From positions 1 through 24,914 of the forward strand of contig CAYJRT010000001.1 of the NCBI GenBank assembly GCA_964372895.1: a DNA stretch of 24,914 bases, given 5' to 3'. Origin of the DNA: an uncultured Candidatus Saccharibacteria bacterium (lineage in GTDB: Bacteria; Patescibacteriota; Minisyncoccia; Minisyncoccales; UBA10102). Both the position numbers and the translations under genes were made by a program. The notes under the pieces are model-generated. The model saw only the letters and a list, made by a program, of their open reading frames with translations. It made no database searches and was not told the origin of the DNA. Below are positions 6,604-19,441 of this stretch, in pieces (position 1 is the first letter of the stretch; each line of letters opens with the position of its first letter).

Positions 6604-7217
6604 TGTATCCCAAACCAATCCAAAAACTGATTGAAATGTTTTCTCGTTTTCCTGGCGTTGGTCAGCGCACAGCCAGCCGTTTTGTTTTTTATCTGCTCAA
6701 GACTCCCGAGCTCGAAATTAATGAGTTTATTGCGGCGCTGCAAAATTTGCGAAAAGAAATTCATGAATGTTCGTTTTGCCTCAGTCCTTTTGAAGCTCAA
6801 GAAGACGAACAGCGCACAGGTCTTTGTGCAATTTGCCTCGATAAAACGCGCGACCACTCTGTTTTGTGCGTTGTGGAGAAAGAAAGCGACTTGGAAACAT
6901 TAGAAAAAACAAAACAATATCACGGCCGGTATTTTATTTTAGGGAAACTCAATGACATCTTAAAGAAAGAAGGATTTCAAACTATGCGAACACAGGAATT
7001 GAAAAATCGAATCGTTAATGAAATAAAGGAGATTATTCTTGCTTTAAATCCTACAACCGAAGGAGAAGTAGCTGTGCTCTATTTAGAGCGGCTGCTTAAG
7101 CCCTATGGCAAAAAAGTCACGAGATTGGCTCGAGGCCTTCCTGTGGGCGGCGAGTTGGAGTATGCCGATGAAGAGACTCTCCGCTCCGCTCTTGAAGGAA
7201 GACGTGAGAGTGTTTAA
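6603..7217 (+). CDS. recR: Recombination mediator RecR
   Basis: HhH motif FPGVGQRTASRFVF, C4 zinc finger, Toprim VVE, ALNPTTEGE and RLARGLPVGGELEYAD. TAATG overlap with dnaB. Confidence 0.95.
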   Translation: MYPKPIQKLIEMFSRFPGVGQRTASRFVFYLLKTPELEINEFIAALQNLRKEIHECSFCLSPFEAQEDEQRTGLCAICLDKTRDHSVLCVVEKESDLETLEKTKQYHGRYFILGKLNDILKKEGFQTMRTQELKNRIVNEIKEIILALNPTTEGEVAVLYLERLLKPYGKKVTRLARGLPVGGELEYADEETLRSALEGRRESV

Positions 7218-7884: not shown

Positions 7885-7920
7885 TGTCGTTAATAACAGC
7901 GATCGCTTGTATTAACGACA
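7885..7920. repeat. 36-bp palindromic repeat 1U (upstream of PaaX/Cas2-like gene 1)
   Basis: TGTCGTTAATA-AC-AGCGATCGCT-TG-TATTAACGACA. 16 of 18 symmetric positions pair; 29/36 identical to 8515-8550. Confidence 0.92.
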
Positions 7921-7934
7921 TGTAGTTTTATAAT
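7907..7934 (+). promoter_or_regulatory. Sigma70-type promoter with -35 inside repeat 1U, probably giving a leaderless mRNA
   Basis: TTGTAT (7907-7912), 16-nt spacer, TATAAT (7929-7934); the ATG follows 6 nt later. Confidence 0.6.
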
Positions 7935-7940
7935 GGAGAT

Positions 7941-8501
7941 ATGAAGCAGTACGGAGAAATTGCAAAACAAATTCTTCTTGTTGTTGGTATTACGGGTGTA
8001 GTGGTAATTGCTGCTGTAGCACCTGGCGCATTACTGGCCGCAAAACCATTTATGCAAAATCGTCAGCGATTTGCCGAAAGGCGTGAAAAGCAAAAAGCCG
8101 TGCGCGCCGTCCAACGACTCCAGAAAAACCGTCTTATCGCTATAAAAGAAGGGAACGGGAACTTTTCTGTTGAACTTACCAAAGAAGGTAAGCGGAAGTT
8201 CAAGGAAATTCAACTCGAAAAACTCAAAATCACAAAGCCTCCGCACTGGGACAAAAGATGGAGGCTTGTTATTTTCGATATTCCCGATAAATCCTTTAAG
8301 CAGGTCCGAGACGTACTGCGAGCGAAACTTAAACAATGGGAATTTTATCCTCTGCAGAAAAGCGTGTGGGTATGCCCATGGCCTTGCGAGAATGAGATAC
8401 AGTTAGTTGCGGAACTGTATGGGGTTGCGTCCTATGTTAACATCGTAGTGGCAGAAAAAATCATTGGTGATGCTTTGCTCCAAAAACATTTCGGTTTATA
8501 G
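7941..8501 (+). CDS. PaaX-like wHTH plus Cas2-like domain protein, copy 1
   Basis: Hydrophobic N-terminal segment, wHTH-like region (AVQRLQKNRLI...ELTKEG), then WDKRWRLVIFDIP..R..LR..L....F..LQKSVWVCP, typical of the PaaX central/Cas2-like fold. Ends HFGL. Confidence 0.8.
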   Translation: MKQYGEIAKQILLVVGITGVVVIAAVAPGALLAAKPFMQNRQRFAERREKQKAVRAVQRLQKNRLIAIKEGNGNFSVELTKEGKRKFKEIQLEKLKITKPPHWDKRWRLVIFDIPDKSFKQVRDVLRAKLKQWEFYPLQKSVWVCPWPCENEIQLVAELYGVASYVNIVVAEKIIGDALLQKHFGL

Positions 8502-8514
8502 CCCGCATTATGTT

Positions 8515-8550
8515 TGTCGTTAGTGACAGCGATCGCTGTTTTAAGCGACA
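8515..8550. repeat. 36-bp palindromic repeat 1D (downstream of PaaX/Cas2-like gene 1)
   Basis: TGTCGTTAGTGACAGCGATCGCTGTTTTAAGCGACA, with a perfect 14-bp core palindrome ACAGCGATCGCTGT and TGTCG/CGACA ends. Direct repeat of 7885-7920. Confidence 0.92.
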
Positions 8551-8583
8551 TAACGATATTTATTCTTCTCTTTTTTGTGCATA

Positions 8584-18551: not shown

Positions 18552-18663
18552 CAGTCCCGCACCTTTTTCTCGGTGGGTGTAGAAGGTTTCGAACCTTCGG
18601 CCTCTTCGATGTGAACGAAGCGCTCTACCACTGAGCTATACACCCATAAAAGGTGCGGGGCTG
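18552..18663. repeat. 16-bp inverted repeat bracketing tRNA-Val
   Basis: CAGTCCCGCACCTTTT (18552-18567) and AAAAGGTGCGGGGCTG (18648-18663); 15/16 complementary. Confidence 0.88.
18574..18645 (-). tRNA. tRNA-Val(CAC)
   Basis: GGGTGTA/TACACCC acceptor, GCTC-AGTGGTA-GAGC D-arm, CTTCG-TTCACAT-CGAAG anticodon arm, GAAGG-TTCGAAA-CCTTC T-arm. Confidence 0.95.
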
Positions 18664-18681
18664 AACCAAATAACTGATACT

Positions 18682-18709
18682 ACTATAGCAGAAGTTGTGG
18701 GATTTTCAA
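18682..18709 (-). promoter_or_regulatory. Promoter for tRNA-Val and downstream genes
   Basis: TTGAAA (18709-18704), 16-nt spacer ending TGC, TATAGT (18687-18682); extended -10. Confidence 0.65.
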
Positions 18710-18741: not shown

Positions 18742-18779
18742 TGTTCCATTTCATTGACGATCGTTAATTTTGTGAAACA
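18742..18779. repeat. 38-bp palindromic repeat 2U (upstream of PaaX/Cas2-like gene 2)
   Basis: TGTTCCATTTCATTGACGATCGTTAATTTTGTGAAACA; the first 27 nt are identical to 19348-19385. Confidence 0.93.
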
Positions 18780-18784
18780 ATAGA

Positions 18785-19342
18785 ATGTGTATGAGGTTTT
18801 TAAAAGAAAATTCTGTCCCCTACGAAATTTTGATGAGCCTTAGGGAACTAGGGAGCGATTATGTGTATTTTACATTTCACCCTCCGCGTTCTGTGCGTGG
18901 TGCCTTATATCAGATGGATCGAAGAATTAATGATCGTACGAGAGCGCAAGCGATAGGAAAACTTAAGAAACAAGGTTTGCTTGCAGAATATAAAAAAGGC
19001 GGTGAGCGGTATTTAAGGATTACTGAAAAGGGAAAGGTAGAAATTATAAGATATAAACTTAAACAAAAGAATGTAGAACAATGGGATAAAAAATGGCGAG
19101 TTATTATTTTCGATATTCCAGAGGTCACACGGAAAGACCGGAATTTTTTAAGGCAACAGTTAAAATGGCTCGGCTTCTTTGAACTCCAGAAGAGCGTATG
19201 GGTGTTCCCCTATGAGGTCAAAAAGGACTTGGAAGCGTTCATAAAGCTCTGCAATATTGAATTAAACGGTGACATTCGATTCTTGATTGTGGAGCAAATG
19301 GAAGATAAAGATCTACGGCGTCATTTTGGCTTGAAATCGTAG
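18785..19342 (+). CDS. PaaX-like wHTH plus Cas2-like domain protein, copy 2
   Basis: wHTH-like region (AIGKLKKQGLL...LRITEKG), then WDKKWRVIIFDIPE..RKDRNFLRQQLKWLGFFELQKSVWVFP, ending HFGLKS. The start may be ATG 18791. Confidence 0.82.
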   Translation: MCMRFLKENSVPYEILMSLRELGSDYVYFTFHPPRSVRGALYQMDRRINDRTRAQAIGKLKKQGLLAEYKKGGERYLRITEKGKVEIIRYKLKQKNVEQWDKKWRVIIFDIPEVTRKDRNFLRQQLKWLGFFELQKSVWVFPYEVKKDLEAFIKLCNIELNGDIRFLIVEQMEDKDLRRHFGLKS

Positions 19343-19347
19343 ATAAC

Positions 19348-19385
19348 TGTTCCATTTCATTGACGATCGTTAATAAAATGGAACA
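19348..19385. repeat. 38-bp palindromic repeat 2D (downstream of PaaX/Cas2-like gene 2)
   Basis: TGTTCCATTT-C-ATT-G-ACGATCGT-T-AAT-A-AAATGGAACA; 17 of 19 symmetric positions are Watson-Crick pairs. Confidence 0.93.
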
Positions 19386-19412
19386 GAAGGTTATCTCTCT
19401 TTGTTTACCTGT

Positions 19413-19441
19413 TTGTGTTTCCCTTGCGAATTTTTTATAAT
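19413..19441 (+). promoter_or_regulatory. Candidate promoter for the 19453 gene
   Basis: TTGTGT (19413-19418), 17-nt spacer, TATAAT (19436-19441); ATG 11 nt later. Confidence 0.55.

Follow-up and report, generated by a model that had tools for sequence, protein, structure and literature searches.

Two similar 38-nt repeats that enclose a single small gene beside a tRNA gene raise the question of whether the repeats serve to regulate that gene, to move it, or both. We addressed this question for one such unit, cassette 2, located in the 24,914-nt stretch of DNA analysed here (the window), which belongs to a source assembly of 502 kb in 86 contigs with an estimated completeness of 78% (genome G000).

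Cassette 2 and the protein it encodes

The features of the locus, from left to right, are the following.

18572..18645, - strand: tRNA-Val(cac), the left neighbour, identified with Rfam; its own promoter-like site lies at 18682-18709, - strand
18742..18779, no strand assigned: 2U, upstream copy of the cognate 38-bp palindrome and putative operator; outer arm TGTTCCAT, core TGACGATCGT, right arm GTGAAACA; aligned with 17 related sites
18791..19342, + strand: mini-PaaX gene, 183 aa, predicted winged helix plus Cas2-like domain (Pfam, NCBIfam, AlphaFold2, Foldseek)
19341..19396, + strand: extended hairpin, if transcribed, made of 2D and the flanking GATAAC/GTTATC; -22.3 kcal/mol, z -5.4, no T-run after it
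19348..19385, no strand assigned: 2D, downstream copy of the palindrome, nearly perfect; arms TGTTCCAT / ATGGAACA; begins 5 nt past the stop codon
19453..21282, + strand: downstream host gene of 609 aa, with its own TATAAT box at 19436-19441, outside cassette 2

A preliminary description of this DNA had reported 38-nt repeats with 27 identical nt at 18742-19385, and both our coordinates and a shuffle control agree with it. 2U and 2D (38 nt each, 606 nt from start to start) are 87% identical overall and completely identical over their first 27 nt, and this shared 27-mer has no further copy in the window besides a self-complementary match on 2D, with 0 matches obtained in 100 shuffles. 2D is a near-perfect palindrome in which 18 of 20 positions are complementary around a CGATCG centre. 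The symmetry of 2U is weaker (14/20), and identity between the two copies ends off-centre, 5 nt past the core on its right side. The divergently oriented tRNA-Val gene is 96 nt away from 2U, close to the 100 bp first estimated, and no tRNA-derived duplication is present, as had also been noted. The downstream 609-aa gene had been described as PP2C-like, an identity for which Pfam provided no confirmation; its TATAAT box is kept in relatives without the cassette. No recombinase genes were found in or beside cassette 2.

The open reading frame between 2U and 2D (18785-19342, + strand) encodes a product of 183-185 aa depending on the start, with the starts of homologs pointing to the second ATG, at 18791, as the likely one. 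This product, which we call mini-PaaX, matches the Pfam family PaaX_M (PF20803, “PaaX central Cas2-like domain”) at 5e-21 with 75 bits vs a cut-off of 24, as well as the NCBIfam cas2 model (TIGR01573) with 25.3 bits, just above the 24.5 cut-off. The match to the PaaX equivalog TIGR02277 is partial (51 bits vs a cut-off of 264.55), and Pfam returned no match to PaaX_C, the C-terminal helical ligand-binding domain, for this protein of 183 aa, as compared to 316 aa for PaaX. In an AlphaFold2 model (pLDDT 80), a winged helix (residues 9-77; H9-20/E23-25/H33-45/H48-60/wing 64-77) is followed by a linker helix and a ferredoxin-like domain (residues 102-178). The top Foldseek match of the model is E. 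coli PaaX (8A39; 2.3e-5, 186 aligned columns), while the C-terminal half matches Cas2 chains (probability 0.99-1.0) and the N-terminal half matches the winged-helix proteins F93 and AspA. Profile searches likewise matched PaaX, over residues 50-164, along with AspA and TubR. When 20 diverse members are aligned, variation is seen in the N-terminal half, and residues D108, R117, R121, Q133, and S135 are invariant. These are Cas2-type signature positions, namely an Asp ending strand 1 and an Arg/Gln/Ser motif, which E. coli PaaX has lost (FDIPE to SEGLD, and QKSVW to APSLM).

Mini-PaaX thus resembles PaaX, the phenylacetyl-CoA-responsive repressor of E. coli W (8A39; PaaX-like structures 3L09 and 3KFW), in having an N-terminal winged helix and then a Cas2-like domain. 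Unlike PaaX, however, it retains the Cas2 signature residues, lacks the C-terminal ligand-binding domain, and is not associated with paa genes, the neighbours of cassette 2 being tRNA-Val and the 609-aa gene and other members lying upstream of ftsK. It further differs by the 36-38 bp sites on both sides of its own gene, by its multiple copies, and by being part of a unit that is gained and lost. With Cas2 and VapD toxins, mini-PaaX shares the ferredoxin-like Cas2 fold, the conserved Asp, and the Arg/Gln/Ser motif, but unlike Cas2 it comes with neither Cas1 nor an array, its Cas2-like domain follows a winged helix in the same chain, and a nuclease role would be putative. Public annotations label genes of this family either “CRISPR-associated endonuclease Cas2” or “PaaX”, and both labels would be misleading under the reading favoured below.

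The order of repeat, “spacer”, and repeat beside a Cas2 relative could also be taken for a degenerate or minimal CRISPR-like unit, given a Cas2-like fold that passes the NCBIfam cas2 cut-off and a repeat of ~38 nt with GTTCC...GAAAC ends. These ends, which had led 2U to be compared to CRISPR repeats, are nevertheless its only likeness to them: the repeats number just two and differ between cassettes, and a conserved coding gene of 568 nt takes the place of the “spacer”. Searches for Cas_Cas1 yielded no match in five genomes (G000, G001, G003, G008, and G016), with control genomes positive, and the tRNA was the sole match in an Rfam scan. We consider the likelihood of a CRISPR-derived unit to be practically negligible.

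Two-part palindromes and a probable promoter within 2U

Across 103 sites, symmetry as a function of distance from the dyad is high at positions 2-4 (0.86-1.0), dips at positions 5-8 (0.63-0.71 complementary), climbs again to about 0.9 over positions 11-17, and falls to background from position 20 onward. The identity between upstream and downstream copies parallels this symmetry profile, which indicates a two-part site of 36-38 bp. In the cassette-2 subtype, for which 18 sites from 11 loci were aligned, there is little or no variation in the outer arms TGTTCCAT / ATGGAACA or in the core ACGATCGT, and the 3-nt spacers are variable and unpaired in more than half of the 18 sequences. Judging from these alignments, the two-part profile fits the selection expected from a symmetric dimer that would make two contacts per half-site on duplex DNA, and not from a continuous hairpin stem. 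A likeness of the outer arms TGTTCCA...GTGAAACA to parS was treated as a coincidence, since the arms of other paralogs are quite different.

Alternatively, the palindromes may function as hairpins, either as stabilisers or terminators at RNA 3' ends or as single-stranded REP elements moved by Y1 (HUH) transposases, with mini-PaaX as a hairpin binder or a bystander. Consistent with this, 2D has a strong fold (-22.3 kcal/mol, z -5.4) whose stem extends past the site, many isolated palindromes (“solos”) are found at gene 3' ends, and Y1_Tnp genes are present in G001, G008, and G003. However, 2U does not fold (z 0.24), the spacers are mostly unpaired, symmetry dips at positions 5-8, and neither a T-run after 2D nor a terminator-like site was detected. 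The Y1 genes are flanked by their own, different GC-rich hairpins, none of which adjoins these palindromes, and a pure hairpin function needs no letters common to the upstream and downstream copies. While arm covariation is compatible with both duplex and hairpin, the spacer profile makes a hairpin function less likely, and we regard it overall as quite improbable.

The difference between 2U and 2D appears to be linked to transcription of the gene, given the following feature in the upstream copy.

18754..18781, + strand: promoter-like site inside 2U; -35 TTGACG (18754-18759, in the core), 16-nt spacer, -10 AACAAT

The -10 AACAAT is made by the right arm of 2U plus 2 nt. With 9 of 12 matches the site is not significant alone, and neither is the outcome of the promoter scan (2 sites found vs 2.4 expected). 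The promoter call is based on conservation, with the same geometry observed in orthologs as TACAAT (L061) and GACAAT (L060). L061, a syntenic ortholog with 71% protein identity and tRNA-Val upstream, bears the 2U-type right arm (…GTGATACA) on both palindrome copies, and the same type of arm is found on the upstream copies of L060, L063, and L197. Hence, the right arm of 2U, first described as degenerate, does not reflect decay: it is conserved in orthologs and supplies the promoter -10. We attribute the asymmetry between 2U and 2D to this promoter constraint, as the right arm of 2U would depart from symmetry because the -10 is formed there, with the -35 in the core. From the comparison with orthologs, it is the right arm of 2D, not that of 2U, that looks derived, having apparently been perfected in the window. 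A centre-crossover inversion or a pair of att hybrids were rejected as sources of the asymmetry, since the identity reaches 5 nt past the core and L061 has the 2U-type arm in both copies. The start codon follows within ~10 nt, which suggests that the mRNA would be leaderless or nearly so.

Promoter elements were also identified in a sister unit of the same window, cassette 1, where the -35 lies in the right arm and is followed by a TATAAT box.

7885..8551, + strand: cassette 1, with palindromes at 7885-7921 and 8515-8551 that have the same frame and different arms
7941-8501: mini-PaaX paralog gene of cassette 1, between its palindromes

Alleles at the tRNA-Val locus and the family beyond it

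The tRNA-Val/609-aa gene pair is syntenic across the family, and the DNA between the two genes was found in five states.

Empty allele, 42-147 bp from tRNA to gene, no palindrome: G001 (same genus), G012, G004, G006, G009, G011, G013, G014, G015
One solo palindrome of the cassette-2 type: L184, L196
Full cassette of the cassette-2 type: the window, L061, L197
Unrelated cassette of the mini-PaaX family, opposite strand, CCATGG-centred palindromes: G008
Third cassette type, CTATAG-centred: G016

L184, L196, and L197 were obtained from a pattern scan of metagenome contigs. The two solo alleles share homologous flanks with L197 on both sides, and the host-gene tree groups L196 and L197 as sisters (97/92), with L184 just outside (100/100) and G000 and G001 next. 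This placement implies that solo and cassette interconvert among close relatives, and do so precisely at the palindrome. The left half of the L184 solo is nearer the upstream copy of L197 at 2 of 3 informative positions, and the right half of the solos agrees with the downstream copy of L197 at 17/17 (L184) and 15/17 (L196) positions, the arm switch in L196 appearing to lie a few nt further right than in L184. As far as these few positions can tell, the pattern would fit equally well an att-like empty site or two independent deletions between direct repeats. Under the latter scenario, the crossover would have occurred in the longest identical stretch, which coincides with the core, and deletion between direct repeats requires no dedicated recombinase.

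The preliminary description had likened the asymmetry between 2U and 2D to that of attL/attR hybrids. In the corresponding model, the palindromes would be sites for a tyrosine-type recombinase, possibly a host Xer-like enzyme, and a 606-bp circle would be excised and integrated at solos. Solo alleles that combine upstream-left and downstream-right arms, direct copies with a 6-bp centre between inverted arms, and the presence of one Phage_integrase-family gene in each of G001, G008, and G003 are in line with this model. Against it, each complete relative genome yielded a single Xer-like gene, no recombinase was found in G000 or G016 (both incomplete), L061 has the same right arm in both copies, and four cassettes face palindrome-free empty sites in G001. 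In addition, since arms differ between cassettes, one host recombinase could not read them all, and the symmetric centre gives no direction for recombination. Neither a circle nor a deletion joint was seen in contigs from 4 runs, and specifically no joint skipping cassette 1 or 2 was found between positions 7000 and 21000 in Logan contigs from these 4 metagenome runs, all of which contain this DNA, with the caveat that contigs drop rare variants. The part of the original proposal that held is therefore the arm combination seen in L184 and L196, and the part that did not is the residual site, as empty alleles in G001 and at least six other genera contain no palindrome. The comparison of gene-lacking relatives suggested in that description accordingly gave two outcomes, a single palindrome in L184 and L196 and none in G001, G012, and other genera, and the second of these is the one it had named as contradicting its reading. 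Altogether, we find the att-site model very improbable.

Cassette 2 is one member of a very large family in Patescibacteria. Within the source assembly, we identified 12 full-length paralogs and 2 fragments, and 11 of the 12 are surrounded by their own cognate palindrome pair. All pairs have a common frame (TGT..., a 6-bp centre, ...ACA) with arms private to each pair. Of 102 genomic CGATCG sites, ~30 are centres of long palindromes, and the distribution is cleanly bimodal. The paralogs share 28-39% identity within the genome, suggesting that they are old, with no sign of recent copying. This level of identity, the direct copies, and the lack of target duplication led us to reject a terminal-inverted-repeat transposon. 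Two cassettes in the genome hold cargo without a mini-PaaX gene, namely an NYN-like gene, bracketed by identical perfect palindromes, and a RelE/ParE-like pair.

Across genomes, the family is patchy and multi-copy, with matches in 13 of 31 related genomes, at most 14 in any one of them. Scanning species-representative genomes, we found at least 540 relatives, from which 80 loci were kept, nearly all of them from Patescibacteria. In 60 of these 80 loci, the repeat between upstream and downstream sequences is far above the locus-internal null. A majority of palindrome centres (81/120) are CGATCG, CGGCCG, CGGTCG, or CGACCG (i.e. CGRYCG), others including CTATAG, CTATCG, and CCATGG. The median distance is 29.5 nt from stop codon to downstream centre and 637 nt from centre to centre, and the copies are direct in 19 cassettes, inverted in 2, and of undecidable orientation in 31. 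Carriage by phages was rejected, as no relative was found among 2.9 million viral contigs, and full-text literature searches retrieved no published description of the mini-PaaX cassette family.

Evidence of gain and loss is not restricted to the tRNA-Val locus. For three further cassettes of G000, namely cassette 1 and those of contigs C57 and C10, the syntenic sites in G001 are empty and palindrome-free; two others, on C16 and C3, are common to G000 and G001 in synteny. Four pairs of loci in different contexts (L082/L109, L076/L121, L095/L105, and L077/L091; 74-82% identity) are homologous only from outer palindrome edge to outer palindrome edge, and no target-site duplications were seen at cassette borders. 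The cassette-2 subfamily also occurs upstream of ftsK (L060, L062, and L063), and solos of the TGTTCCAT type were detected at no fewer than 5 distinct loci in metagenome contigs, some in tandem with a solo of another type. G001 encodes 8 cassettes and ~20 solos, 5 of which are of one type, and a given intergenic site can hold different types in G000 and G001. Many solos are placed at gene 3' ends.

PaaX is a repressor that binds a palindromic operator. Mini-PaaX may similarly be an ordinary autoregulated transcription factor with two operators, of which 2U would repress the promoter and 2D would act as a roadblock, looping partner, or insulator, with the gene and its sites moved passively by general recombination and the solos elsewhere representing a regulon. 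The promoter inside 2U and the PaaX-like fold agree with such a function, as do solos found just upstream of genes (e.g. C61:3459, C7:10545, and C28:285 in G000) or kept at one locus across species (C24:903 and G001:C3:33084). Several solos, however, sit in promoter-free DNA between two convergent genes (C4:6498, C33:4010, and G001:C18:7439), and a conventional regulator would not readily account for at least 12 paralogs, each mainly self-bracketing, with a patchy distribution and in a genome of 0.5 Mb. The same is true of homology that stops exactly at palindrome edges in different contexts, of types that replace one another at the same intergenic sites, and of cargo cassettes (NYN, toxin-antitoxin) without a regulator gene. 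We consider this explanation doubtful, while giving it more weight than the hairpin and att-site models.

A probable case of a protein and its own sites gained and lost as a block

The explanation we favour, and which we deem probable if by no great measure, is that of a self-repressed protein and its cognate sites that are gained and lost as a block in the manner of a selfish repeat-gene element, with a REP/RAYT-like behaviour built on an unrelated protein. Mini-PaaX would act as a symmetric dimer bound to double-stranded DNA at the two-part 38-bp palindrome of its own cassette. In this dimer, the winged helices would read the outer arms TGTTCCAT / ATGGAACA, and the conserved Cas2-like dimer would sit over the core, CGATCG here and CGRYCG family-wide. 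Binding to 2U would occlude the protein's own promoter and lead to autorepression. Recombination between the direct copies would delete the gene and leave a solo and, more speculatively, the cassette's own protein might promote or control insertion, with its Cas2-like domain at the core.

Several elements of this explanation are established at the level of sequence comparison: cassette 2 is an insertion that separates the divergent tRNA-Val gene from the 609-aa gene, and the family includes a conserved palindrome-gene-palindrome unit, precise solo alleles, dispersed solos, and homology ending at the palindromes. The combination of insertion, solos, and edge-to-edge homology suggests a unit behaving like a REP/RAYT-style repeat-gene partnership. 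What the cassette 2 locus specifically contributes is the full range of alleles at one site (empty, solo, cassette, and foreign cassette), along with an embedded promoter that explains the asymmetric arm. Counted against the favoured reading are the absence of target duplication and, in the contigs, of joints skipping a cassette, the age of the paralogs, and the direct orientation of the copies, and solos can also arise by ordinary deletion between direct repeats.

The closest behaviour is indeed that of REP/RAYT systems (REPtrons, REPINs, BIMEs), in which a gene is flanked by cognate palindromes, several private types are found per genome, and solos occur in intergenic DNA, at gene 3' ends, and in tandem clusters. 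Mini-PaaX cassettes differ from these in a protein that is not a HUH/Y1 transposase, in their low copy number, in sites that resemble half-sites on duplex DNA with an unconstrained spacer, and in the orientation of the flanking copies, direct here and inverted for the REPs of RAYT genes. The protein family is PaaX-like, and the cassettes belong to neither group, having on the one hand no HUH/Y1 enzyme and direct flanking copies, and on the other no PaaX_C domain or paa context. Like pdif modules and integron cassettes, they are single-gene cassettes, including toxin-antitoxin cargo, with short imperfect palindromes and alleles with and without the cassette, but each cassette has sites of its own instead of sites common to one recombinase, no integrase or attI platform accompanies them, and empty sites are usually site-free. 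Similarities to IS200/IS605 elements include a size of ~0.6-0.7 kb, one small gene for a ferredoxin-like fold, hairpin-capable ends, and no target duplication, whereas mini-PaaX cassettes lack the HUH motif and catalytic tyrosine, have direct ends that are full palindromes, and exist as copies that are not near-identical.

A bolder version, which we view as unlikely, is that the winged-helix/Cas2-like proteins are themselves enzymes moving their own palindromes and cassettes, reading the private arms and cutting or joining at the CGRYCG core. If so, they would represent a new class of sequence-specific DNA-mobilising proteins on the Cas2 fold, and a free-living, selfish relative of the Cas2 of CRISPR adaptation, and the palindrome, duplicated in direct orientation on either side of the insert, would be reminiscent of the repeat duplication of spacer integration.

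If our favoured reading of a self-repressed protein travelling with its sites holds, a single undescribed family of self-bracketed proteins and sites would account for as much as ~2% of the genes in certain of the smallest known bacterial genomes, making it a major contributor to genome variation and assembly breaks in Patescibacteria. Since each protein would have its own 38-bp site, the family would constitute a naturally occurring collection of orthogonal protein-DNA pairs, numbering in the hundreds, that could serve in the study of recognition codes and in synthetic biology. A sequence-reading and possibly DNA-processing role outside of CRISPR would also be added to those of the Cas2 fold, which would bear on the origin of the adaptation module.

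Palindrome-bounded cargo without a mini-PaaX gene

In cassettes 1 and 2 of the window, a mini-PaaX gene (winged helix plus Cas2-like) lies between palindromes. Two cassettes elsewhere in the same genome, read from the assembly sequence, carry cargo without this gene, and a third palindrome adjoins one cargo unit (C, contig):

C50:136-1039, cargo cassette without mini-PaaX gene
C73:2045-2835, cargo cassette without mini-PaaX gene
C50:934-971, third palindrome, of a different type, adjoining the NYN unit

One unit of this genome carries an NYN/LabA-like gene bracketed by two identical, perfect 40-nt palindromes, the arms of which are similar to those of cassette 1, while a RelE/ParE-like pair (95 and 81 aa) has CGATCG-centred palindromes on either side. 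The octamer GCGATCGC, known as 'HIP1' in cyanobacteria, has 30 copies across the whole genome versus 4.6 expected from base composition, and most of them are found in the centres of the palindromes. The whole genome also shows strong avoidance of CTAG, with 259 occurrences versus 1902 expected. The assembly consists of 86 contigs, and many of their ends also lie at or next to cassettes or solos (lone palindromes without a gene), elements that seem to break it, through repeats or strain variation:

C8:10316-10449
C11:9321-9462
C31:60-93
C50:136
C28:285
C7:10545

Features of the encoded proteins and of the downstream hairpin

Most mini-PaaX paralogs, including L004, L006, and L010, have a strongly hydrophobic N-terminal stretch, at about residues 8-35 in the cassette 1 protein (gene at window 7941-8501), which may form a membrane helix or belong to the winged helix, as its buried first helix and strand. 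Unlike most paralogs, the cassette 2 protein lacks this stretch. Immediately outside the downstream palindrome of cassette 2, complementary GATAAC/GTTATC extend the hairpin to window 19341-19396, with overlap of the stop codon. In L061 and L197, two loci carrying a full cassette-2-type unit, no such extension is seen.

Insertion spots, solo palindromes, and transposase-like genes

In other genera, different small insertions occupy the intergenic spots where cassettes 1 and 2 lie: a methyltransferase-like gene in genome G012, a stretch of about 600 bp containing a long inverted repeat in G017, and an ORF of 106 aa together with a GC-rich hairpin in G003. These spots look like insertion hot spots shared across genera.

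L050:694-1554 (= G012:C9:120500-121360), other small insertion
L041:880-1510, other small insertion
L040:1006-1510, other small insertion

At three loci, solo palindromes of two different types are arranged in tandem with their centres 45-65 nt apart, which resembles BIME-like clusters or one insertion spot used repeatedly. In two related contigs, a SAM-methyltransferase-like gene has a TGTTCCAT-type solo within its reading frame.

L171:13016-13103 (= G001:C3:33016-33103), tandem solos
L191:398-482, tandem solos
L195:1139-1230, tandem solos
L187:317-356, intragenic TGTTCCAT-type solo
L192:789-828, intragenic TGTTCCAT-type solo

Relatives further encode Y1/HUH transposase-like proteins of about 240 aa with an NHYH motif (L173:9471-10211 = G001:C4:29471-30211; also on contigs C7 and C6 of G001, a same-genus genome), and every such gene is flanked by short GC-rich hairpins private to it. 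These genes and hairpins make up a RAYT/REP-like system of the conventional kind, present alongside the CGRYCG palindromes of the mini-PaaX family but separate from them.
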